Shown piece after piece: positions 2,009-50,653 of a stretch of DNA of 64,000 nucleotides (its first letter is position 1; each line of letters starts with the position of its first letter). The DNA comes from a virus (Duplodnaviria; Caudoviricetes). Both the position numbers and the translations under genes were made by a program. The DNA lies in the IMG/VR virus record IMGVR_UViG_3300031867_004305, positions 117,043 through 181,042 of that record; one strand, written 5' to 3'. The notes beneath the pieces are model-generated. The model had not been told where the DNA came from and made no database searches. It saw nothing but the letters and a program-made list of their open reading frames with translations.

Positions 2009-2482
2009 ATGAAAAAAATCCTCGTCGCTCTAATCGCGGCTTTGCTTCTTTGCCCTGCGGTAAAAGGCATCCCAATTACCGACGAAGCCTTGACTCATTT
2101 AGGTAAGCCTTATGTATATGCGACAGCCGGTCCAAATACATTTGACTGTTCTGGCTTCACTTGTTACTGCTATAAAGTAGTAGAGGAAGTAGAACTAAAA
2201 CGTTCCGCGAGAGACCAAGGGTATGACGACTCATATGAAAAGATTGAAAGTGCAGAAAGCTTGATACCAGGAGATCTCGTCTTTTTCAACACTAATCAAT
2301 CGGACCTAGACAAAAGCGACCACGCGGGTATGTATCTCGGGAACGGAGAATTTATTCATTGTTCCTCTAGTAAAGGGAAGGTAGTAATTTCTTCTCTGCT
2401 TGAAGGATTTTATAATGAACATTTTTCTTGGGGTAGAAGAGTTATTACACGAACTACTAAAACTTATCCACATCGAAGATGA
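2009..2482 (+). CDS. NlpC/P60 cell-wall peptidase with signal peptide
   Basis: GKPYVYA...FDCSGF...GDLVFF...HAGMYLGNGEFIH catalytic motifs; hydrophobic N-terminus. Confidence 0.9.
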   Translation: MKKILVALIAALLLCPAVKGIPITDEALTHLGKPYVYATAGPNTFDCSGFTCYCYKVVEEVELKRSARDQGYDDSYEKIESAESLIPGDLVFFNTNQSDLDKSDHAGMYLGNGEFIHCSSSKGKVVISSLLEGFYNEHFSWGRRVITRTTKTYPHRR

Positions 2483-17668: not shown

Positions 17669-18643
17669 ATGAAACTACAATTCCTAATTCCTCAATACAG
17701 AGAAACAGAGGAAATGATTTGGCCTTTACTTACTTCAATTGCTCTTCAGCGTAGATTAGACTTTTCTGAGATAGGTGCTATCATTTGTAATGATGGTAGT
17801 GATACGATATTATCAGAAAGCTTTTTAGCACAATTTCCATATAGGATAGAATATATTCGTGCACCGCACGGCGGAGTATCTGCCGCGCGCAATATTTGTT
17901 TGCGACAAGCTACCGCAGATTATGTTATGTTTTGTGATGCGGATGATATGTTTTGTTCTACACATGAGTTGTGGCAGGCTTTGGATTCGCTTTATAAAGA
18001 CCCGTGTGATGTTTTGGTCTGTGATTATATAGAAGAATGGGCTACTTCGAAACAAAAATATACTTATAAAACTGTTACTGAACCAGACCATACTATTCAC
18101 GGGAAGATTTTTTCCCGTGTTTTTCTAATGGAAAAACAAATTTTTTGGAATGAAAAATTAACAAATATAGAAGATAATTATTTTTGTTTTTTAGTTTATA
18201 GCGAAAATCCAAAATTAGGGCAATACCATTATTCTACATATATGTATTGTAATTCAGAAGGCTCAATCACGCATAAGTTAGATTATAATTATTTTTCTAC
18301 ATTGGACGTTATTAAATGTTTTGTAGCGTTAATAGAAGAACTGCTGCGACGAGGTAATTATAATTGGGCACAAGATATGCTATTGAGTGTTTATTATAAA
18401 ATTTTCTTTACTACAAATCTAGAAGAATGGCAAACAGAAGAAAGAAGGGATTTAAAAACTAAAGTTGAACAAAGTTTTAAAAAAGAACTCCTTCCTTATT
18501 GGGATTTATATCTACAAACCAATGAGGAACAACGAGTTCAATTGTATAAGGAAACTAAAGTAGCTATAGAATATATTTGGCATCCATTTATTGAAACTAT
18601 TAGTTTCAAAGATTGGATAGAATATATAAGGGGGTTAACATGA
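17669..18643 (+). CDS. Glycosyltransferase family 2
   Basis: IPQY...CNDGSD...GVSAARN...YVMFCDADD motifs. Confidence 0.88.
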
Positions 18644-20544
18644 AAAAACTAATTACAGCAATTTTACTCCTCTTCTTCATTCCCCACATTCTTCTCGCAG
18701 AAGAAATTACTTCTATCCAAGACATTCTTCCATCAGAAGAAACTTTGTCTATTGAGGATACCGAAGTAATCATATCAGCGGAAGAAGAATTAACTCCAGA
18801 AGAATACACATTCAATCTTGAGCCGGAAGTTGAATTTATTGCTTCTAATGAAACAGAAGAAGAAGAAACAACCGAAGAAGAAACAACCGAAGGAGAAGAG
18901 GAAGAAGAAGAAACAACCGATGAAGAAACAGTAGTCTTTAAAGGAGAAGTTGAACTAACCGAAACACTCGGTATAGTAGATATTTCTCAAACCGTAAGCG
19001 TTTATAACTACTTCTACGACCGTGTAGCCAAGAAGTATTCAGTTCCTATGCAGACTGAAGTAAAACAACTAGGGCTTGACGCATACGTGCGTGTGCACCT
19101 AAATGCTTATCGCACGGTCAAGGCAACAGACGAAGAAGAAGAAATAGACTGGGATTTTCTTGAATGTGGCGTTTTAGACGCAGACGGAAATCTTCTTGAA
19201 GAAGGAACTCCCGACTATGTACTTATTGGTGATACAGTATACTACACCAAAATACTACCAAAGGGATATACTTTTTACGTAGCTTATTACGGACGTTTTA
19301 ATGACTATCAGCATTTAGCAACTAGTTCTCGCGTTAGCACTCGTCCTAGTGCCGACGCAGTTCAAAGTCAAAATTTTTATCCTGACTTTAGTAGCGACGA
19401 CCCTTGGAATAACATAAATATTCAAGAAAAAGAAAAAGACGAAGTAGAACAAGTAGCTTCTTTGACTTTTGAAGTCATAGAAGGCGAAGATTACGGAGAA
19501 CTTGAAGCGACAGTAGATGAAGAACAACTAAAAAATTATGCGATGCCAGGCGATAATATAGAGATGGAAGTCCAATTAGATGTAACTGGCGAAGAAGGCT
19601 ATATTTATGAAGTATTTCATAATATCAAAGCAATAACTTCTATGTCAGAACTAACCGATTCTATCATAGAAAATCTAAAAGTTTGGTTATCTGTAGACAA
19701 TGAAGAAAGAAATGAAATATATAATTCTGAAATACCTGAAGAAAAACAGTCATTAGGCCAATATATCAAAGGCCAAATACTAAATCTATGGTATTCTTTT
19801 ACACTCGCACCCGAATTAGATAATGATTTTGAAAGTGAACAACTCACTATCAAAACAGAATACGAATACGCAATCGCGGCGACCCCTACACCTTCACCTA
19901 CACCGACGCCAACTCCATCTCCAACCCCAACACCTACTCCATCGCCATCTCCTACACCTACACCAAGTCCTACTCCTACACCAACACCTAGCCCTACTCC
20001 CACTCCAACTCCCAGTCCTACCCCAACAATAACACCTTCTCCTAGTCCAACTCCAACACCAACTCCAACGCCTACACCCACACCTACCCCAACTCCAACA
20101 CCAACACCTACTCCTAAACCTACACATACGCACAAACCAACTTCAACACCAAAACCGACTCGTACTCCTAAACCTACAGAGGAAGTAGTTATAATAGTAA
20201 CTCCTACACCCACACCTACGCCCACTCCTACTTCTTCTCCTACTCCCACTCCTATTCCTACTCCAACCCCAACACCCACTCCAAAACCAACGATGTCACC
20301 ACGCGAGAAGGAACGTATTAGAAATTACATTATCAAAAATCGCGATACTGACCCAAGACTAAGCCAATACAAAGACATGACTGTAGAAGAATTAGAAGAG
20401 TTAATTGACCTTCTAGATTATGAAACTCCTTTGTATGGCGAGTTACTCAAAACAGGAGACGAAATCCCTATTTATCCATTTATTTTTGCGGGTGCGGGTA
20501 TATTAATTCTTTTATTTGCGATTTTCCGCAAACGTATTATTTGA
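18640..20544 (+). CDS. Secreted Pro/Thr-rich protein with sortase-type anchor
   Basis: Signal peptide; acidic domain; (PT/PS)n stalk; [16 protein letters not shown] + TM helix + RKR tail. Confidence 0.75.
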
Positions 20545-21470: not shown

Positions 21471-21619
21471 CGATCCCTAGCTCAGTAGGTCTAGAGCAGC
21501 GGCCTTCACGAAGTACAATCAAGTAGATGGTCTGAAATTACTCAGGCGGGTGACAGGTTCAAATCCTTCCTTCGTGACCAATAAGCCGTGTGTCCTGGGT
21601 TCGAGTCCCAGGGGATCGA
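21471..21619 (+). tRNA. tRNA-Ile(UAU) interrupted in the anticodon by a 74-nt tRNA-like insert (21507-21580)
   Basis: CGATCCC/GGGATCG acceptor, D and T arms intact; GCGGC-CTT[insert]ATAA-GCCGT. Confidence 0.8.
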
Positions 21620-21699: not shown

Positions 21700-22338
21700 A
21701 TGCCATACATTTATAAAATTGTAAATGATATTAATAATAAAATATATGTTGGGAAAACATTGAAAACAGTTCAAGAAAGATGGAAGCAGCATTTATATGA
21801 TTATGATAAAAAAAGAAATGAAAAACGACCTTTATATGATGCTATGTTAAAATATGGTCCTAATCATTTTCATATAGAAGAATTAGAAAATGTTTTAGAC
21901 GCGACTTTATTAAATGAACGCGAAAAATATTGGATTGAATTTTTACATTCTTTTCAAGATGGGTATAACGCCACATGCGGCGGAGATGGGACCCCATATG
22001 CTGATTATGCATTAATCTATGAATTATATACAATTCATAACTTAACATTTGAAAAAATTCAAAATATAACTAATTATGATATGCGTACTATACGTGCTGC
22101 TATTATGAGTTGTGGTATTTCAAAAGAAAATATTGAAAAAATCCGCTTACAAAGATTAAGAAAGCCTGTAATGCAGTTAGATATAAAAACAGAAGAAATT
22201 TTAAAAATTTTTCCTAGTTGTACTGCTGCACAGCGTGAAGTTAGTAATAATCCAAATGATTATTCTGGTACTCATATTTCTGCTGTATGCCGTGGCAAAA
22301 GACGTACTGCCTATGGTTATAAATGGAAATACTTGTAA
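21700..22338 (+). CDS. GIY-YIG homing endonuclease with NUMOD1-like C-terminus
   Basis: YIYKI.N.IN.KIYVGKT...R...H...E...GYN.T.GG; terminal ISAVCRGKRRTAYGYKW. Confidence 0.88.
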   Translation: MPYIYKIVNDINNKIYVGKTLKTVQERWKQHLYDYDKKRNEKRPLYDAMLKYGPNHFHIEELENVLDATLLNEREKYWIEFLHSFQDGYNATCGGDGTPYADYALIYELYTIHNLTFEKIQNITNYDMRTIRAAIMSCGISKENIEKIRLQRLRKPVMQLDIKTEEILKIFPSCTAAQREVSNNPNDYSGTHISAVCRGKRRTAYGYKWKYL

Positions 22339-24058: not shown

Positions 24059-24239
24059 TTGATTTGGGATGATAATTTATATGACGCGATGAAAGATGTA
24101 TATGACTATGCCTATCGCGTTTTTTTTGGAAAAGCACCCATAGATGTTACTTATCGTGTGAATTATGGCAGTAGAGGAGCAGAACAAAAAGTTTTACAGT
24201 ATATTTGGAACACTTATATTGAACCGAAGGGAGAAAATA

Positions 24240-24821
24240 ATGAGTAATATTTATTTCAGTAGTGACTTGCATTTTTGTCATAACCGCGGTTTTCTTTATG
24301 AGCCACGCGGTTTTTCATCTATCGAAGAACATGACTCTGCCATTATTGAAAACTGGAATAAAATAGTTAAAAATAATGATGTTGTTTTTCTACTTGGTGA
24401 TTTAATGCTTAATGATAATGTAAATGGTATTAAAAAATTAAATAAATTAAATGGCACGATATATTACATACGAGGAAACCATTGCTCAAATGCGCGTTGC
24501 GTCCTATACGAAGAACAAACTAATATGATTCCGCTATGTAATAATTTCTTTAGTAGTTGGGCTTCATTAGAAAAAATCAAAGGATATAATTTGTATTTAT
24601 CTCATTATCCAACTATAATTGGCTCATTAAAAGATATGACGCCATTAAACAAGAGATTAATAAATCTTCATGGTCATCTTCATAGTAAAAATAAATTCTA
24701 TCAAGATATTCCTTTTATGTATAATGTAGCACTTGACGCACATAATAACGCGCCCGTATCATTTGATGAAATTATTTCAGATATTGAAGCAAAAGCAAAT
24801 GAATGTATTGCTATGCTATAA
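24240..24821 (+). CDS. Calcineurin-like metallophosphoesterase
   Basis: SDLHFCH, LGD, GNH, SHYP, HGHLH motifs. Confidence 0.88.
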   Translation: MSNIYFSSDLHFCHNRGFLYEPRGFSSIEEHDSAIIENWNKIVKNNDVVFLLGDLMLNDNVNGIKKLNKLNGTIYYIRGNHCSNARCVLYEEQTNMIPLCNNFFSSWASLEKIKGYNLYLSHYPTIIGSLKDMTPLNKRLINLHGHLHSKNKFYQDIPFMYNVALDAHNNAPVSFDEIISDIEAKANECIAML

Positions 24822-25129
24822 GGAGATAATATGATTTACGAGGGGCCTTATGTACTTATTTTAATTATCCTATTAGGGATAGGCGCTAGTTTATTATTGA
24901 CTGGTTTTATGAATAGTTAATCAAGGAGGAAATATGGGATTACCATTTATTTTTGGGAAAAAGAAAACAGAAGAAACCCCTGATATTACTAATGAAGAAT
25001 TAGAGAAAATATTAAAATCTGCTCCTGTAATATCTTCAAATACAATAAAACCAGAAGTTATAAGTTTAACTACTTCACGTGAATTAAAGTATTTAAAGAA
25101 ACGAATATGGAAATTCTATCATAAATAAT

Positions 25130-25158
25130 TTGACTTTTACTAAAAAATCTGCTATAAT
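25130..25158 (+). promoter_or_regulatory. sigmaA-type promoter of the DUF2828 gene
   Basis: TTGACT-17 bp-TATAAT with TG extension. Confidence 0.85.
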
Positions 25159-25222
25159 AATATTGTAAGAAAGAAACGAGCCCTAGTCCAGGGCTGACCA
25201 AATGAAAAGGAGAAAATAAATT

Positions 25223-26758
25223 ATGAATCGTCTTTACAATGCTATGGCTTCTCAGAACACCTACAAGACTACCGAGAATGGTGCTATCGCACGCACCACG
25301 ACCAGCTCTAAGCTATATGACCTCTTCTCTTTCGGCGCGGCTTACCGTCAGCGTACCGAGAGTGATTGCGTGCTACTATTTAAGGAGGCATATAAGGAAA
25401 GTCCTATGTATGCCCTAAAGTGCCTGTTCTATATCCGCGATATTCGCGGCGGACAGGGTGAGCGTCGTTTCTTCCGCACTTGCCTGCATTGGCTTGCGGA
25501 TTATGACCGCAATGCCGTACTACGCAATCTTGACCAGATTGCTGAGTATGGCCGCTGGGATGACCTATATGCCCTAGTGGGGACTTCTTGTGAACATGAT
25601 GCTCTTTATGCTCTTGGCAAGCAGCTTGCCCTTGATTACAAGACCAAGGGTGCTATTTCCCTTGCCGGTAAGTGGGCAGCTTCAGAGAACGCTTCTTCTG
25701 CCAAGACTAAGCGTTATGGTCGTCTAACTGCTCATACTATGGGTCTAACTTCTCGTCAATATCGCAAGGTGCTTTCTACCCTTCGTGAGCGTATTCGTGT
25801 TCTGGAGCGACTTATGTCCGCAAATCGTTGGAATGAGATTGAATTTGACAAGATTCCTTCTCGTGCTGGCCTAATCTACAAGAACGCTTTTGCACGCCGT
25901 GATATCATCAAGGCGAAGTATGAGTCTTTTGCAAAGGATAAGACTACCAAGGTTAACGCGGCAGCCCTCTATCCTTACGATGTCGTAGCTAAGGCAATTA
26001 AGCTGATGGGCTCTGACAGCTGGTATGGCCGTGGTAATCATGTTGCTCTTGACAATACCGATCGTCTAATGATTAACAAGTATTGGGAGAATCTTGTTGA
26101 TTATCTGACTGGTGCTCCACTAAATGCGGTGGTAGTGGCTGATACAAGCGGAAGTATGTGTTCAGGTGCTAATAGTGTGGCTCCAATTGATGTTGCTGTT
26201 TCTTTGGCTCTATACGCGGCCGAACGTATGCGTGGTCCTTTTGCCAATCATTATATTTCTTTTAGCCGTAAGGCTCGTTTAATCGAGACTACTGGCGTGG
26301 ATTTTTGTGATAAGGTAGATAGGATTGTAAGGACGAATCTATGTGAAAATACGAATTTAGCTTCCGTATTTGACCTTATCCTAAGTACTGCTTGTCACTA
26401 TAATCTATCTCAAAAGGATATGCCAGAAAGCATTATTATTGTAACAGATATGGAAGTAGATTCCGCACAGGGTTATTCTTCTTGGGGACGAGCACCTGAA
26501 TATGGACACGGCGGTAAGGGAATTCAAACCTTTATGGATAAGATGCGTAGTCGTTGGACTGACGCAGGATATAAAATGCCAAAAATTGTATTTTGGAACG
26601 TAAACGCACGAAATAATACAATTTTGGATGATGGCCCTGATGTTACTAATGTCAGCGGTTGCTCACCGGTTCTATTTGAATCTATCCTATCTGGAAAAAG
26701 TTCTTATGATCTTATGATGGATAAGCTAAATAGTAATCGTTATAAGCCAATTCATTAA
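25223..26758 (+). CDS. DUF2828-family TROVE/Ro60-like protein with C-terminal vWA domain
   Basis: TENGA, RDIRGGQGERRFF, EYGRWDDL, KW motifs; MIDAS DTSGSM; TDME; FWNVN. Confidence 0.82.
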   Translation: MNRLYNAMASQNTYKTTENGAIARTTTSSKLYDLFSFGAAYRQRTESDCVLLFKEAYKESPMYALKCLFYIRDIRGGQGERRFFRTCLHWLADYDRNAVLRNLDQIAEYGRWDDLYALVGTSCEHDALYALGKQLALDYKTKGAISLAGKWAASENASSAKTKRYGRLTAHTMGLTSRQYRKVLSTLRERIRVLERLMSANRWNEIEFDKIPSRAGLIYKNAFARRDIIKAKYESFAKDKTTKVNAAALYPYDVVAKAIKLMGSDSWYGRGNHVALDNTDRLMINKYWENLVDYLTGAPLNAVVVADTSGSMCSGANSVAPIDVAVSLALYAAERMRGPFANHYISFSRKARLIETTGVDFCDKVDRIVRTNLCENTNLASVFDLILSTACHYNLSQKDMPESIIIVTDMEVDSAQGYSSWGRAPEYGHGGKGIQTFMDKMRSRWTDAGYKMPKIVFWNVNARNNTILDDGPDVTNVSGCSPVLFESILSGKSSYDLMMDKLNSNRYKPIH

Positions 26759-26781
26759 AAGACGGATTATTCCGTCTTTTT
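26757..26781 (+). terminator. Intrinsic terminator
   Basis: AAAAGACGGA-TTAT-TCCGTCTTTTT. Confidence 0.75.
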
Positions 26782-26798
26782 ATTTAGGATGTGATTCT

Positions 26799-27542
26799 AT
26801 GGGAAGGCCCGCTAAAGATTTAACAAATCAAAGATTTCAACGATTATTAGTAATTAAGCGTGATGGTTCTACAGCTGATGGTCATGCTAAATGGTTATGT
26901 TTATGTAACTGCGGTAATTATATAAGTGTATCATCCAATAGTTTAAAACGCGGTGATACTAAATCTTGTGGATGCTTAAATAAAGATGTAGCAAGAGAAA
27001 AAGGTAGACAATCTTATAAAGATCTCACTAATAAACGTTTTAATAAACTAATTGCTAAAGAATATTTAGGAAGTAATAATAAAGGAAGTGGTTTATGGAG
27101 ATGCGAATGTGATTGTGGAAATAATAATTTTATTACAACGTCGCACCATTTAATTAGCAGCAATACGCAAAGCTGTGGTTGCTTAAAATCAAAAGGAGAA
27201 GCAAATATAAAACAACTACTTATAAATAATAATATTAATTTTATTTCACAATATTACTTTAAAGATTTATATTATGAAAGTAATATACCTGTTCGATTTG
27301 ATTTTTATTTACCCGATTATAACCGATTAATTGAATTTGATGGTATTCAACATTATACTTCTGGCGGTGGATGGAACACCGCTGAATTATTTAAACGCAA
27401 TAAAAAACACGACGAAATTAGAAACCAATATGCCCTTTCCCACAACATTCCTCTCGTTCGCATACCATATTGGGAACGTGATAATATTACTCTTGAAATG
27501 TTATTTAGTGATGAATATTTAGTGAAAGAAGAAGATGAATGA
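26799..27542 (+). CDS. Putative homing endonuclease (Zn-binding repeats + Vsr/DUF559-like nuclease)
   Basis: Two DLT..RF..L...W.C.C.CG...SCGC repeats; RFDFYLP...IEFDGIQH. Confidence 0.75.
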   Translation: MGRPAKDLTNQRFQRLLVIKRDGSTADGHAKWLCLCNCGNYISVSSNSLKRGDTKSCGCLNKDVAREKGRQSYKDLTNKRFNKLIAKEYLGSNNKGSGLWRCECDCGNNNFITTSHHLISSNTQSCGCLKSKGEANIKQLLINNNINFISQYYFKDLYYESNIPVRFDFYLPDYNRLIEFDGIQHYTSGGGWNTAELFKRNKKHDEIRNQYALSHNIPLVRIPYWERDNITLEMLFSDEYLVKEEDE

Positions 27543-27612
27543 AAATTCATCTTCTTTTTTATTGACTAAATATAAAAATTATAGTATAATAATTATAGAA
27601 AGGATGAGGAAT

Positions 27613-27969
27613 ATGAATTATTATATCTATCTTGATGATGTACGCGAAGATGATACTTGGTTTCGGCAACATTTAAATACAGAGCATTGGATTCCTTGCG
27701 TTGTTCGTTCCTATGATGAAGTAATTCATGTTCTCAATCATATGCGAGATTATATGAATGAGAATGAAGTGCTTATTCTTGACCTCGACCACGACCTTGG
27801 CGAAACTGAAGAAGGCTATAATGAACTCGCGCGCACAGGATATGACGTTTGTAAGTGGATTGTTGAAAACGATTTTCAAAATCTTTACTTTCATATACAT
27901 AGTATGAACCCCGTTGGGTCTGCAAATATGCGGCAACTTCTTACTCATTATGGATATAAGGAGATTTAG
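27613..27969 (+). CDS. Cyclic-phosphate-processing receiver domain protein
   Basis: IYLDDVR...LDHDLG...GYDVCKWI...IHSMNPVG signature. Confidence 0.75.
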   Translation: MNYYIYLDDVREDDTWFRQHLNTEHWIPCVVRSYDEVIHVLNHMRDYMNENEVLILDLDHDLGETEEGYNELARTGYDVCKWIVENDFQNLYFHIHSMNPVGSANMRQLLTHYGYKEI

Positions 27970-28397: not shown

Positions 28398-29048
28398 ATG
28401 AGAAAGTATGAAAAGATTGATACTCTCTATCAAAGAGACACAACCGGAACTAAAAAGTTGCTTCCGGGAGTATTTCGTGATCCTACCGTAGAATATCTCA
28501 GCGACAATAATTGGATTTGGACTGAAAAGGTTGATGGCACTAATATCCGTGTATGTTGGGATGGCCATACTGTAACCTTTGGCGGCCGCACCGATAATGC
28601 TGCTATTCCCGCAGAACTTGTTACTCGTTTGAATGAGTTGTTCGGTGGAGAAACAAATGCTCAAATTTTTGAACAGGTTTTCGGCGATAAGGAAGTCATT
28701 CTTTTCGGTGAAGGCTATGGTCGCAAGATTCAAAAGGGCGGTGGAAAGTATATTCCCGACGGCGTAGATTTTATTCTTTTTGATGTGCTTATTGGCGACA
28801 ATTATCAAGAACGAGAATGGGTAGAAGAAACTGCCACAATGTTTGGAATTAAAGCTGTTCCTATTGTTGGCACTGGTAGTCTATATGCCGCAGGAGAGTA
28901 TGTAAAAACCCATCCTAATTCTGTAATTGCAGAAGAGCCGCGTGAAATGGAAGGAGTAGTATGTCGTCCTGCAATTGAACTACGCAATCGTCGCGGCGAG
29001 CGTATAATCGTAAAAATCAAATGGGAAGATATGAAGGAGCTAGTATAA
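28398..29048 (+). CDS. ATP-dependent RNA ligase (Rnl2-like nucleotidyltransferase core)
   Basis: Motif I EKVDGTN, III FGEGYG, IIIa FILFDV, IV EGVVCR, V IVKIK. Confidence 0.85.
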   Translation: MRKYEKIDTLYQRDTTGTKKLLPGVFRDPTVEYLSDNNWIWTEKVDGTNIRVCWDGHTVTFGGRTDNAAIPAELVTRLNELFGGETNAQIFEQVFGDKEVILFGEGYGRKIQKGGGKYIPDGVDFILFDVLIGDNYQEREWVEETATMFGIKAVPIVGTGSLYAAGEYVKTHPNSVIAEEPREMEGVVCRPAIELRNRRGERIIVKIKWEDMKELV

Positions 29049-31872: not shown

Positions 31873-32217
31873 ATGTATAGTAGAGATTATCTTGATGATT
31901 ATGACCCATCATCAACCTATTCGGACGCCTTTTCTACAACTGGTAGAACTGCGGCGGAACGTCGTAAGAATGATTGGAAGTATGCTAAACGTAATCAAGC
32001 GATAGTTAATGCGATTGGCGGCGTTGATAAGCCTCTTCATTATTATGTTAAAACCGCACCAGAATATTATTATCAAAGATGTAATAAAACTAATAATAAA
32101 GGCAAACATCGCACCGCTTATGGTAATTATAATGATTCTAAAAATTGGAGTCCAAACGATAAACGTAAATTAAACGATTATCAAAATCAAATTGAAGAAT
32201 TATTTGACGAAGAATAA
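31873..32217 (+). CDS. Hypothetical protein
   Basis: 114-aa ORF on the coding strand. Confidence 0.55.
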   Translation: MYSRDYLDDYDPSSTYSDAFSTTGRTAAERRKNDWKYAKRNQAIVNAIGGVDKPLHYYVKTAPEYYYQRCNKTNNKGKHRTAYGNYNDSKNWSPNDKRKLNDYQNQIEELFDEE

Positions 32218-32544
32218 AAATTGTGATATAATATTTATAGAAACAAGGAAAGGATGATAATTGTGCGTAAGACTTCTCGTACTGTGTTTTCTTCTTCTTG
32301 GACTCGCCGCGAGCAGGCTGAAAAGCTTGATGAGTGGCAGAATTAGCCGGTATAAGCAGACAAATTGCGGCCAATAGAATGCCGGTACCGTAAATGTTCT
32401 TCTAACGCCTCTCGAAGAAGCGCACCACTAGAAGACTTATTACCTAGGTAGTTGCGGCGAACAACGATAAAAATCGCTAGTTGCCCAGATACTTACTTGA
32501 AGGGTTTCTGCCGCGTTAATCTTGGTATCGGATTGCGGTTGTAT

Positions 32545-32679
32545 CCACGCGTGGTGCAAATGGCGAGACACAGCGGACTTACGTAGGCCCAGTGGCTTGT
32601 TGGAGAGCAACACTCCTTCCTACGACCAAAATCCGCGACGCAAGATACATTGCTGGTTCAAATCCAGTCGCGTGGACCA
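32545..32679 (+). tRNA. tRNA-Leu(UAA) interrupted in the anticodon by a 47-nt tRNA-minihelix-like insert (32582-32628)
   Basis: CCACGCG/CGCGTGG-ACCA; GCGGA-CTTA[insert]AAA-TCCGC; long variable region; T arm intact. Confidence 0.8.
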
Positions 32680-32682
32680 TAT

Positions 32683-32759
32683 GTTCCATTACCCCAATTG
32701 GTAGAGGGAATCGGCTCAAACCCGATGTAGTTTCAGTTCGAATCTGAAATGGAACACCA
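32683..32759 (+). tRNA. tRNA-Leu(CAA), short variable loop
   Basis: ATCGG-CTCAAAC-CCGAT; ACCA. Confidence 0.88.
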
Positions 32760-32837
32760 GAAAATTTTATTTCGAGTTCAAATTGAAATAATTTGAACTT
32801 CGAATAGCCACTTTCTAGTAGAAGGAGGTGGTAAGTA

Positions 32838-33794
32838 ATGGAAACTTACACAAATATTTGGTTAGATATTTCAGAAGAACAATGGAGAAAAATTATTTCT
32901 ACTAGTCTAACTCGTGCAGAGGTCGCACGCAAAGTTAATCGTTGTCCCAATTCAAGTTTTAATGAGCGTTTAAAAAAATATTGTGATGAACATAATATCT
33001 CTATTGAACATTTTACAATTAATGAAAATGGCAATAAAGAGAAATATCAACTTGAAGAAATTCTAGTAGAAAACTCTCCTGCTTCGAGAAAAACATTAAG
33101 AGACTATTTAGCAAAATATAACATTCTAGAATATAAATGTGCTATTTGCGGGAATGTTGGAGAATGGAATGGAGTTTCTTTAACTTTACAAATAGACCAT
33201 ATTAATGGAATAAATAATGATAATAGAAAAGAAAATCTTCGTTGGTTATGTCCAAATTGTCATTCTCAAACTGACACGTTTACTGGGAAAAATAAAACTA
33301 AAAAAGAAGTTGTTAATTTCACAGTAGAAGAAGCGATTAAAGCATTAAGACAAACTGAAAATGTAAATCAAGCAACTAAATTAATCGGTTGTGCGCAAGG
33401 TGGAGCAAATTGGATTAGAGTAAATGATATTAAGAAAGAATATGGAATTGTTCAATCTGGAGATTTAAAAAAAGAAGAAAAATATAAGTTTGAAGAAAAT
33501 CATATTAATGTAAAACCAATGAACTTTATTAAATTATGTAAAAAGTGCGGTCGTCCATTATCGACAAAAGATGCTGAGTATTGTCAAACTTGTATTCACG
33601 AATTTCAACGAAAATGTGAATGGCCTTCCCGCGAAGAACTTAAAAAATTAATCCGTTCCACACCTTTTTTACAAATAGGTAAAAAATATAATGTAAGTGA
33701 TAACGCTGTAAGAAAATGGTGTTTAAATTACGGTTTACCATCTAAAAAAAAGGAAATCAAAGCAATTTCAGATGAAGAGTGGGCTACCATTTGA
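32838..33794 (+). CDS. HNH homing endonuclease
   Basis: CAIC...LQIDHING...DNRKENLRWLCPNCH. Confidence 0.88.
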   Translation: METYTNIWLDISEEQWRKIISTSLTRAEVARKVNRCPNSSFNERLKKYCDEHNISIEHFTINENGNKEKYQLEEILVENSPASRKTLRDYLAKYNILEYKCAICGNVGEWNGVSLTLQIDHINGINNDNRKENLRWLCPNCHSQTDTFTGKNKTKKEVVNFTVEEAIKALRQTENVNQATKLIGCAQGGANWIRVNDIKKEYGIVQSGDLKKEEKYKFEENHINVKPMNFIKLCKKCGRPLSTKDAEYCQTCIHEFQRKCEWPSREELKKLIRSTPFLQIGKKYNVSDNAVRKWCLNYGLPSKKKEIKAISDEEWATI

Positions 33795-34186: not shown

Positions 34187-34264
34187 GTGCCCGTGGCGCA
34201 ACTTGGCAGACGCGCTACACTTAGGATGTAGATTTTCAGAGTTCAAATCTCTGCGGGCGCACCA
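34187..34264 (+). tRNA. tRNA-Leu(UAG), short variable loop
   Basis: CTACA-CTTAGGA-TGTAG; ACCA. Confidence 0.88.
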
Positions 34265-34603: not shown

Positions 34604-35197
34604 GTAGATACCCTATTTAATAAAATGGTTGAACCAAGTGAAGAAGAGCTAACCACTCTGCTTGGACTATCCGAAAAACAGCCCCAAACTTGATGGGATA
34701 CTTTCAAGCCAAGGCCGCGAAATCAGTAATGATTAGCGATATGGAGAAACTCCTAATGTTAAGGGTAGGTGCTTGGTTATCCGCTAACAAAAACTTGGCT
34801 CCTCGCGGCGTCGTAATAGAAGGTGGGCGTTAAAAGCGTGACCTGAATCCAAGTTAGGCGTAGGATGGCTGCCACCGCAAACCTTGGAAATGCCAACAAG
34901 ACGCTTGGTGTCGTTGAAACCTAGAAATAGGATATAAGCGAGGTTCACAGAAAAAGTAGCCCAAAACGACAATGATTCTAATAGATATTTGTAAATATTA
35001 CTTGGAATTATTGTGCTGAACGGTTCGGGTGAAATTTGAGAGTAAGCAATCTCTCCGTTGCTCACCGAAAGGTAGGGTGAAGAAGTCCGGAATTGCTACC
35101 CGTGGCTCAGCCTTCATCTTCAACGTGGTTGAATATGTTAGAAGGATAATACAAGTACGACGAAGGTCGCAACGGTTTTATTAAATAGGGTATTTGC
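34604..35197 (+). ncRNA. Large ncRNA, ROOL-like (~590 nt)
   Basis: Long closing helix ATACCCTATTTAATAAAA/TTTTATTAAATAGGGTAT; size and tRNA-cluster context fit ROOL; family assignment is recollection, not a search. Confidence 0.6.
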
Positions 35198-48843: not shown

Positions 48844-49362
48844 ATGAAAATTTATTTGGCAGGTTCAATATTTTATCACGGTGATGTTCTACGAAATACT
48901 GAATGGGCCGCAAAAATTCGTGCTGCAATACCTAATGTAGATTTATATAGCCCAATTGAAAATACTGAAATTAATGGGACAGAAGGCAAAAAGAAGTTCG
49001 CAGGCTCACAAGAAATTGCTAATGGTGATAATATTAGACTAAATAATACCGACATTCTAGTCGCCTGTATTGATGGAGATATTCTTCCCGCGGGTACTTG
49101 TGCGGAAATTGGCAAGTTCCATGAAAAAATTGAGCGTGGTGACCATAAATACGTTGTTGGTATTTGTACAGATAATCGTCAAATGTACCTAACTCATAGT
49201 GAAGCTAAAAATATTGGTGGTGCCGCCGCACTTGGAGAACAGCAATATAGTTATCAAAATCTATACGTAACTGGTCTAATTAAGCAAGGTGGTATTTTAG
49301 TATCTAATATTGAAGATGCTATTGCTTTTATTAAGGAAAAGGAGAATGAATTTGATGAATAA
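48844..49362 (+). CDS. Nucleoside 2-deoxyribosyltransferase-family protein
   Basis: IYLAG...YSP...D...GT.AEIG...NLYVTGLI. Confidence 0.8.
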   Translation: MKIYLAGSIFYHGDVLRNTEWAAKIRAAIPNVDLYSPIENTEINGTEGKKKFAGSQEIANGDNIRLNNTDILVACIDGDILPAGTCAEIGKFHEKIERGDHKYVVGICTDNRQMYLTHSEAKNIGGAAALGEQQYSYQNLYVTGLIKQGGILVSNIEDAIAFIKEKENEFDE

Positions 49363-50653
49363 TATGTTATATGGTATCAATGACAAGCCACAGACCTTAA
49401 AAGAATGGGTTGGTTATTCTTTTCAGGTTGTTTTATCTTGTATTACAGCAACACTTTTAATTTGTTTAATCGCAGGCACTAATCTAACTGCTGGTATGTG
49501 CGCCGCAGGTATTTCAACAATATTTTTTCTATTTATCACAAAATTTAGAGCTCCCATTATAATTTCAAATAGTGGTGCGACAGTTTCCGCAGTTATCGGT
49601 GCTATTGCTCTCGCCGGGCCAGTTCAAAAAAATTTTGCTGGGGTAATTTTAGGTGGCATAGTTATTGCTAGTATTTATTGCCTTGCCGCCTTATTTATTA
49701 AGCGATTTGGCGTAGATTGGATAACTAAATTAATTACGCCAGTAATGTCAGGAGCAATTATATTAATTATTTCTATTCAATTAGGGTTTTTTATTCCTAC
49801 TTATGCACAAATTAATAATTCTTATTCATTACTTGGCGTTGGAATAGCATTGTTTGATATGTTAATTACTTTACTTTGTGCATTTTATGGTAAAGGAATT
49901 ATTAAACGTTGGCCCATTCTTTTTGGTGTTTTAGGAGGTTATGTTTTAAGTTTAATTTTAACTCTAACCAATTTTGCTCCATTAGTAGATTTAACACATT
50001 TCCAAAATATGAAATTAATTACTATTCCTGATTTTGCATTTTTACATGTTTCGTTTAAAAATTTTGATTGGAGCGTTTTACCACAAATTATTATTAGTTT
50101 CGCATTAGTTTCCGCCGCGGCATTAGCCGAACATCTTGGGGATATGATAAATGCTTCAAATATTTGTGGAAGAGATTTTCTAAAAGATCCTAGTTTATCA
50201 AAAACGCTATGCGGCGATGGTTTAGGCTCTTTAATTGGAACTATTATTGGTGCTCAGCCAAATACAACTTATACAGAGAATCTTTCTGCAATTCTTATTA
50301 GTAAATGTGCAAGTGTGTATATTACATTACTCGCAGCAATAGAGTTAATTTTATTAGCATTCTTAGGGCCTTTTAATGCCGCACTTCAAGCAATGCCTAA
50401 TGCAGTATTCGCGGGAGCATCCATTTGCTGCTATGGCATGATTGGGGCAAGTGCAATGAAATACTTAAAACAAACAAACATTAACTTTGAAAATCAAAAG
50501 ACTATGTGGATTTTTGCTATTATGCTAATGGTAGGAACTTCTGGTTTAACGATTACTTCCGGAGCTTTTAATATTTCAGGTATTTGCCTTGCAATTATTG
50601 TGGGAATTATTTTAAATATTATTTTAAAAGATGAAAATCTAGAAAATACTTAA
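49355..50653 (+). CDS. NCS2 (uracil/xanthine) nucleobase permease
   Basis: Multi-TM; EHLGD; GDGLG; PNTTYTEN NAT signature. Confidence 0.88.
   Translation: MNNMLYGINDKPQTLKEWVGYSFQVVLSCITATLLICLIAGTNLTAGMCAAGISTIFFLFITKFRAPIIISNSGATVSAVIGAIALAGPVQKNFAGVILGGIVIASIYCLAALFIKRFGVDWITKLITPVMSGAIILIISIQLGFFIPTYAQINNSYSLLGVGIALFDMLITLLCAFYGKGIIKRWPILFGVLGGYVLSLILTLTNFAPLVDLTHFQNMKLITIPDFAFLHVSFKNFDWSVLPQIIISFALVSAAALAEHLGDMINASNICGRDFLKDPSLSKTLCGDGLGSLIGTIIGAQPNTTYTENLSAILISKCASVYITLLAAIELILLAFLGPFNAALQAMPNAVFAGASICCYGMIGASAMKYLKQTNINFENQKTMWIFAIMLMVGTSGLTITSGAFNISGICLAIIVGIILNIILKDENLENT

Follow-up and report, generated by a model that had tools for sequence, protein, structure and literature searches.

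To our knowledge, introns are removed from tRNAs in only two established ways: by group I self-splicing in bacteria, and by a bulge-helix-bulge endonuclease together with a ligase in archaea and eukaryotes. Group I introns have a conserved core (P3-P9), are usually longer than 200 nucleotides and carry a terminal G at the 3′ end. The bulge-helix-bulge consists of two 3-nt bulges separated by a 4-bp helix, and it carries both splice sites. We know of no bacterium in which the corresponding splicing endonuclease has been described. The introns closest to those considered here come from phages. The tRNAs of Lak megaphages contain introns that were called ‘enigmatic’, one of which perhaps itself encodes a tRNA (Devoto et al. 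2019, PMC6784885), and a 2026 survey of jumbo phages reported intronic sequences in tRNAs, in genomes with alternative genetic codes (PMC13037316). Neither report gives a rule for the ends of these inserts or a mechanism for their removal, and our search of the literature on tRNA-like phage introns found nothing further.

The locus described here lies in the final 64 kb, hereafter the window, of a complete uncultured virus record of 181,042 bp (36.6% G+C). Translation table 11, the sole code applied, gives long open frames throughout the window. A search of a phage collection for cultured relatives returned no DNA match, and the best protein identity of the GyrB-like gene was 33%. The window hosts a cluster of 21 tRNA genes, 19 of which are found by standard ARAGORN and two more, both interrupted (21471-21619 and 32545-32679), when introns are searched for. 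The cluster also contains a full-length ROOL RNA (Rfam RF03087, 307.6 bits, model positions 1-574) at 34610-35188 (+), between tRNA(UAG) and an HNH-like gene. Elsewhere in the window a gene of the xanthine/uracil permease family (49310-50653, +; Pfam, 182.7 bits) is an unusual auxiliary gene for a phage.

The second interrupted gene is the main subject of this work. It is overlooked by ARAGORN unless introns are searched for; with that search it is a class II tRNA of 88 nt, with a 7-bp acceptor stem, a discriminator A, an encoded CCA and a long variable arm, whose anticodon loop holds a 47-nt insert. This block is additional to the seven loop bases and lies between the two strands of the anticodon stem. 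The features of the locus are as follows.

32204..32232 (+), promoter-like site about 310 nt upstream of the Leu gene, 11/12 match to the consensus with a TG-extended -10 (consensus scan only)
32545..32581 (+), 5′ exon of tRNA-Leu(UAA): acceptor 5′ strand, D arm, anticodon stem 5′ strand and C32-A35 (ARAGORN with introns, alignment)
32582..32628 (+), 47-nt insert (boundaries from uninterrupted alleles; pair counts on 8 variants; covariance model matches)
32629..32679 (+), 3′ exon: A36-A38, anticodon stem 3′ strand, variable arm, T arm, acceptor 3′ strand, discriminator A and CCA
32683..32759 (+), tRNA with anticodon CAA and a short variable arm (ARAGORN; Rfam tRNA model, 52.4 bits; compensatory differences from relative L002)

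The conserved 105 nt upstream of the gene (32440-32544) showed no significant fold.

Related loci came from two sources. Seventeen were fetched via the RNA ligase gene that is located between both interrupted tRNAs, and further loci were found by a DNA-pattern search of viral and metagenome contigs. In four relatives (L007, L009, L011 and L019) an uninterrupted Leu gene occupies the syntenic position, with a tRNA of anticodon CAA directly downstream. The loop of this gene reads CTTAAAA in all four, therefore the anticodon of the gene in the window is UAA. An A is repeated at both junctions, so a one-base shift of the insert (32582-32628) is equally possible. ARAGORN proposed the anticodon CAA and its own cut positions, and these are overruled by the uninterrupted alleles; its types for interrupted Leu forms are CAA or Val, Phe or Arg. 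We regard it as confirmed that 32545-32679 is a tRNA-Leu(UAA) gene split by the insert 32582-32628. A reading made from the sequence alone had placed a 47-nt insert precisely within an intact Leu cloverleaf and held that its removal restores a TAA loop. Its parse of the sequence is exact, and the restored loop is the one found in the four relatives.

The tRNA that follows the Leu gene is not the only one of its kind. Leu-anticodon tRNAs (CAA, UAG and UAA) with short variable arms, 77-78 nt long, are found in the window (32683-32759 and 34187-34264), in L009 (10115-10191) and in L006 (7237-7360), whereas bacterial tRNA-Leu usually has a long arm. Compensatory changes between phages show these to be real tRNAs; their amino-acid identity is uncertain.

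The insert itself is built from two helices and a tail.

32582-32587 paired with 32619-32624 (+), terminal stem, 6 bp, insert helix 1
32602-32605 paired with 32613-32616 (+), hairpin, 4 bp, with a 7-nt loop at 32606-32612, insert helix 2
32625-32628 (+), ACCA tail, the 3′ end of the insert

We recovered eight distinct variants of the insert, each of 47 nt, that fall into two sequence types, A (the form in the window) and B, with unrelated interiors. Both types share the segment lengths 6-14-4-7-4-2-6-4: stem 5′ strand, 14-nt linker, hairpin stem, 7-nt loop, return strand, two bases, stem 3′ strand and tail. The tail is ACCA in seven of the eight variants and ACAA in the other (L006). Pairing was counted over the eight variants, with 100% standard pairs (15/15) and double changes in seven pairs. 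None of 500 shuffles reaches the observed values, and when the partners are slid by 1-3 columns only 37-59% still pair. Three of the four hairpin pairs covary. This covariation across types A and B favours the hairpin over the minimum-free-energy fold of the interior, which explains no paired changes and was rejected. The search patterns had fixed four of the six terminal-stem pairs, so the invariance of that stem is partly imposed. The unpaired stretches of the interior are also conserved within each type.

In type B the two ‘extra’ bases pair, and the element becomes one unbroken 7+5 helix with the geometry of the acceptor/T-arm minihelix of a tRNA. In the type A form of the window the minihelix is imperfect, with mismatches in two layers between the stems and 6+4 Watson-Crick pairs. 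The resemblance of the insert to the acceptor/T-arm ‘top half’ of a tRNA, ending in ACCA, is supported by these comparisons. The acceptor-like stem, the hairpin with a 7-nt loop and the ACCA had all been proposed beforehand and are now backed by covariation; a D-loop-like AGTGG, proposed along with them, is not conserved in type B and is dropped here.

The Leu gene is not alone in hosting such an element. Interrupted genes for at least five tRNAs are found in this phage clade.

Leu(UAA), insert of 47 nt, in the window and relatives, loop position 35/36
Ile(UAU), insert of 74-77 nt, in the window, L003 and L005, loop position 34/35
Glu(UUC), insert of 44 nt, in L002, L007 and L010, loop position 35/36
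Asn(GUU), insert of 49-50 nt, in L007 and L011, loop position 34/35
Lys(UUU), insert of 105 nt, in L022 at 2268-2372 (-), loop position 34/35

When the Ile, Glu, Asn and Lys genes are compared with their uninterrupted counterparts, only one pair of boundaries is possible. All five families follow one rule: the first base of the insert is also the first base of its terminal stem, and its last bases are the other strand of that stem and then ACCA. The position of the insert in the host loop varies (34/35 or 35/36), so it is the insert, rather than the host tRNA, that defines the cut sites. The terminal helix and the ACCA tail are the only features that all five families share. CCA is encoded in 18 of the 21 tRNA genes of the window, thus the tail of the insert copies the phage's own tRNA ends.

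Across the families the inserts form a series, from a nested tRNA through a degenerate tRNA to a bare minihelix, in which the acceptor/T-arm helix and the CCA tail are retained throughout. The Ile gene of the window hosts a degenerate case.

21471..21619 (+), tRNA-Ile(UAU) with a tRNA-like 74-nt insert (21507-21580), ending in ACCA, between U34 and A35

This insert scores 22.1 bits on the Rfam tRNA model, and the ends of the match fall exactly at 21507 and 21577. In the Asn family a 7-bp stem is continuous with the inner hairpin, and two compensatory pairs distinguish the stem of L007 from that of L011. The Leu insert had earlier been said to share its architecture, and not its sequence, with the insert at 21507; the comparison with uninterrupted genes and the match to the tRNA model bear this out. 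The same reading had argued from the two cases for a mechanism rather than an accident, a view strengthened by three further families (Glu, Asn and Lys) that follow the identical end rule.

Two members of the series are worth describing separately. The Ile insert of L003 (5325-5401, +) is a complete cloverleaf with the anticodon CUA, of the amber-suppressor type, nested inside the anticodon of another tRNA. The Lys insert of L022, the longest member, has the terminal stem and ACCA and no obvious T arm.

Is the insert removed from the RNA? In an alignment of the 11 distinct interrupted Leu genes, the host cloverleaf and the insert together form 30 pairs, none of which is non-standard in any sequence. 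Double changes are seen in 17 of these pairs, including all seven acceptor pairs. The complete 181-kb genome contains no other gene for Leu(UAA) or Ile(UAU). As had been claimed from the window, the codons concerned are common in this phage: UUA is the commonest Leu codon (42% of Leu codons, 31 per 1000) and AUA accounts for 25% of Ile codons. A sole Leu(UAA) gene with a covarying cloverleaf, in a phage that uses UUA for 42% of its leucines, is unlikely to be a pseudogene, which implies that the insert must leave the RNA. We consider it quite probable, on this comparative evidence, that the insert is a genuine intron that is removed from the RNA.

The anticodon stem of the host (window 32573-32577/32632-32636) shows a further difference. 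Two pairs from the loop, a G-C pair of the interrupted gene corresponds to A-U in the nearest uninterrupted allele (L019, L007 and L009), and this recurs in three Leu lineage comparisons. The difference is absent in L024 and in one Glu case, therefore it is a tendency of interrupted alleles and not a rule. It could reflect co-conversion, or a firmer stem that holds the exon halves.

The distribution of the Leu insert is informative about how it moves. The 47-nt element is found at the identical site in at least 11 different Leu gene bodies, on viral and metagenomic contigs, which goes far past what chance would produce. A covariance model scores 55-75 bits inside Leu(UAA) genes only, with one match per source searched (541 kb in total), and finds no free-standing copies, or copies in other tRNAs, in these 541 kb. 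We found no copy of the insert among 185,579 bacterial and archaeal genomes. Type A is nearly identical over at least eight Leu genes with widely differing acceptor, D, variable and T arms, i.e. the insert is better conserved than the genes that host it. Type B is hosted by a class II gene (L024) and, in L006, by a short-arm tRNA whose anticodon loop is the same. The class II and short-arm hosts of the Leu insert share only the anticodon stem-loop. Similarly, the uninterrupted Glu gene of L011 and the interrupted one of L002 differ by a single compensatory pair and the insert. This is probably the pattern of a site-specific element that homes to anticodon-loop DNA, a mechanism of mobility that we infer from where the copies are found.

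Homing-endonuclease-like genes are close at hand.

21700..22338 (+), GIY-YIG/NUMOD1 homing-endonuclease-like gene, 80 nt downstream of the interrupted Ile gene (Pfam)
32838..33794 (+), HNH homing-endonuclease-like gene, about 160 nt downstream of the interrupted Leu locus (Pfam HNH)

Homologues of the HNH gene adjoin interrupted tRNAs in several of the relatives, not in all. A strict link between the inserts and adjacent homing endonucleases was sought among the relatives and was not found. The HNH gene at 32838-33794 is a possible driver of mobility at the DNA level. We propose that the insert would spread between phages by homing to the conserved anticodon-loop sequence, with the free-standing homing endonucleases of the tRNA cluster assisting.

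The region between the two interrupted tRNAs encodes a candidate for the enzyme that would rejoin the exons, and a set of genes that resemble RNA-repair functions.

24165-24821 (+), metallophosphoesterase-like gene (Pfam; Atlas look-alikes as leads only)
25223-26758 (+), Ro/vWA-like gene, DUF2828 and DUF7788 (Pfam)
26799-27542 (+), probable nuclease/NUMOD-like gene, 247 aa, resembling DUF2726 and NUMOD/I-HmuI-like phage proteins (Atlas features, structure)
27535-27969 (+), cyclic-phosphate receiver domain cREC_REC (Pfam), in an RNA-repair neighbourhood at 24165..27969
28398..29048 (+), RNA ligase, 216 aa, with a distant Rnl2-type adenylyltransferase domain (Pfam RNA_ligase, PF09414, 58.5 bits), candidate sealing enzyme

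The 216-aa ligase is encoded 3.5 kb upstream of the Leu gene, between both interrupted tRNAs, and has weak matches to the T4 Rnl2 structure 1s68 and to TIGR02307. The product of 26799-27542 is probably a further homing-type nuclease inserted in the repair module, and not a repair enzyme. A PF09414 RNA ligase is present in both of the complete genomes that carry the Leu insert (2/2), in two different architectures. The second of these genomes (G001, 188 kb) has no ortholog of the 216-aa ligase; instead it encodes a 408-aa protein with an OB fold and an RNA_ligase domain (G001:C1:19311-19871; L057 844-2070). Every relative in the 17-locus set was found via the ligase, and uninterrupted relatives have it too, so the ligase is not specifically linked to the inserts; a strict link between the inserts and orthologs of the 216-aa ligase was likewise not found.

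How could the insert be excised? All families share the terminal helix and the ACCA, and the splice sites are the ends of the tRNA-like unit, therefore the machinery that matures tRNA ends is the simplest explanation. For bacterial RNase P, an acceptor-like stem stacked on a T-like hairpin and followed by a 3′ ACCA suffices to pick the cleavage site, and the enzyme leaves a 3′-OH on the upstream piece. The insert has this form, an acceptor-like helix on a hairpin with a single-stranded 3′ RCCA, with ACAA in one variant. ATP-dependent ligases of the Rnl2 type join 3′-OH and 5′-phosphate ends without healing; those of the PF09414 kind join the same ends, which are the ones left by RNase P and by RNase Z or E.

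The pathway that we propose runs as follows. The cloverleaf of the host tRNA and the minihelix of the insert would each fold on their own in the precursor. Bacterial RNase P would recognise the minihelix and its 3′ ACCA and cut at the first base of the insert, leaving a 3′-OH on the 5′ exon. An endonuclease that makes CCA ends, either a Thermotoga-type RNase Z or an RNase E-like enzyme, would then cut just 3′ of the ACCA and leave a 5′-phosphate on the 3′ exon. The acceptor and anticodon stems would keep the exon halves together until they are joined within the anticodon loop by the Rnl2-like ATP-dependent RNA ligase of the phage, giving CTTAAAA and a working tRNA-Leu(UAA). We give roughly even chances to this account, in which RNase P, a 3′ tRNA endonuclease and the phage ligase would between them splice out the insert, each enzymatic step being predicted from the form of the ends. 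We know of no experiment that shows splicing by tRNA-trimming enzymes and a phage RNA ligase.

There are precedents for the second cut. The RNase Z of T. maritima makes a single endonucleolytic cut exactly after CCA (PMC3161902), as does the RNase E of E. coli on proline tRNAs (PMC5291269). Both cuts leave a 5′-phosphate downstream. The 3′ cut is nevertheless the weakest link of the pathway. In many bacteria CCA inhibits RNase Z and the CCA ends are made by exonucleases, which in this setting would destroy the 3′ exon. An RNase Z-like metallo-beta-lactamase was not found in the phage genome. The cyclic-phosphate receiver and the phosphoesterase-like neighbours, in addition, suggest 2′,3′-cyclic phosphate ends, which count against the pathway: neither RNase P nor RNase Z or E generates such ends.

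A broader view of the intron can be suggested, tentatively and at a little under even chances. The element may live as a mobile parasite on the machinery that matures and repairs tRNAs, and the series from a nested tRNA through a degenerate one to a minihelix of 44-50 nt may be a shrinkage to processing signals.

The cyclic-phosphate genes lead to a different enzymology. A dedicated endonuclease of the phage or its host could read the stem and the ACCA and leave 5′-OH and 2′,3′-cyclic phosphate ends, to be healed by the phosphoesterase and cREC proteins and sealed by the ligase. The cREC domain, the metallophosphoesterase-like gene and the ligase do occur together between both interrupted tRNAs, and the scheme parallels T4 Pnkp/Rnl1 repair and eukaryal tRNA splicing. 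In addition, the terminal stem is almost invariant despite differing interiors, as expected of a protein that reads sequence, an invariance that our search patterns partly imposed. That said, the phage genome offers no candidate for the enzyme: no tRNA_int_endo domain is above threshold (the best PF01974 match is sub-threshold at 11.9 bits and antisense to the 18613-20544 ORF) and RtcB was not found. Nor would such an enzyme explain why the families copy tRNA features, e.g. the T-loop, the 7+5 helix, the full cloverleaf and the CCA, and the usual interpretation of such repair modules is that they counter the anticodon nucleases of the host. On balance we consider a dedicated endonuclease unlikely.

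Another possibility, compatible with splicing, is that the functional product is the released minihelix (in the Ile case, the nested tRNA), which the host tRNA would mainly serve to carry. Such a product could act as a decoy for those host enzymes or toxins whose target is the acceptor end of tRNAs, or it could partner the Ro/vWA-like protein, whose gene is nearby. One Ile insert, that of relative L003, is a complete tRNA with anticodon CUA, and within each type the Leu inserts have a conserved interior, unpaired stretches included. Against this, the interiors of types A and B are unrelated, with only the helices and the tail in common, a pattern that fits processing signals better than a specific ligand, and no free-standing copies were found by the covariance model in 541 kb. 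We give the product reading only a small chance.

Splicing itself would be unnecessary if the insert stays in, either because a selfish tRNA-derived element has killed the gene or because the gene is kept solely for the effect of the insert on the DNA, where it destroys the target of a homing endonuclease. The inserts are indeed polymorphic, in a region rich in homing endonuclease genes. However, 100% of the cloverleaf pairs are kept in the 11 distinct interrupted genes, with many compensatory changes, and the gene is the only one for the phage's most used Leu codon. Furthermore, the insert has diverged into variants of two types while its hosts remained intact, and the explanation would require the death of all five tRNA families. 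We judge it improbable that the insert is retained.

A degenerate group I intron or a small self-cleaving ribozyme is hardly credible: although tRNA-Leu(UAA) is the classic host of the bacterial group I intron, at nearly the same site, 47 nt is too short for a group I core, the 3′ end is A and not G, only two short helices are conserved, and an Rfam scan of 32440-32770 with E up to 10 gave tRNA matches, one chance-level cis-regulatory match and no Intron_gpI or other ribozyme family, in agreement with the sequence-only reading that the insert is not a group I remnant. Over the remaining 117 kb of the genome, no Rfam family attained its gathering score. A bulge-helix-bulge intron was rejected as well. 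The geometry is wrong, since a single internal loop (4 nt and 7 nt) separates the anticodon stem from a 6-bp helix and contains both junctions, and the phage lacks the endonuclease and RtcB.

If excision by RNase P and a 3′ tRNA nuclease is correct, these inserts would be a new kind of intron, with splice sites defined by tRNA mimicry. It would give phage RNA ligases a routine task beyond the repair of damage, and it would explain the ‘enigmatic’ tRNA introns of megaphages. There is also a practical consequence for the annotation of phage genomes. Bacterial-mode tRNA finders miss interrupted genes, here including the tRNAs for the most used Leu codon and for AUA, so inventories of phage tRNAs, and arguments about codon usage built on them, are biased.

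How do these inserts compare with known systems? The group I intron in the tRNA-Leu(UAA) of cyanobacteria and plastids is also mobile and interrupts the same tRNA species at practically the same site in the anticodon. It is a self-splicing ribozyme of about 250 nt, whereas the insert described here has 47 nt, no catalytic core and an ACCA in place of the terminal G. The tRNA introns of archaea and eukaryotes are likewise short, dependent on proteins and located in or near the anticodon loop, with exons that are rejoined by an RNA ligase. They differ by the bulge-helix-bulge, which is absent from the present insert.

The Lak and jumbo-phage inserts share more with those described here. They occupy the anticodon loop, are highly conserved, polymorphic among relatives and without an Rfam match, and some are tRNA-like. 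The Leu insert of the window is likewise an anticodon-loop insert that is absent from relatives and has tRNA-like acceptor/T-arm helices; the Lak layout is not found in it. The Lak inserts place a 5′ hairpin and a linker ahead of the tRNA-like part and have no CCA end (Table S6 of PMC6784885), whereas the insert in the window runs from position +1 of the tRNA-like stem to the ACCA, is reduced to a 47-nt minihelix, and comes from a phage of 181 kb. This phage has long frames under table 11, the only code compared here, in contrast to the alternative codes of the jumbo-phage survey (PMC13037316). The Lak inserts are therefore related in idea, and not in layout, to those presented here.

Two further comparisons concern the proposed pathway. 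The minihelix model substrates of bacterial RNase P, and the interaction of RCCA with the P15 loop, involve the same acceptor-like stem on a T-like hairpin with a 3′ ACCA. Those are laboratory substrates or ordinary tRNA precursors; here the minihelix is embedded in a tRNA, and cutting it would break the host tRNA. Finally, in the Pnkp/Rnl1 system of T4 a phage RNA ligase also seals a break in an anticodon loop, and the repair genes are also found in the tRNA region. The T4 ligase is Rnl1, that of the window a small Rnl2-like domain, and the break in T4 results from an attack by the host, whereas here it would be programmed by the insert of the phage's own gene.
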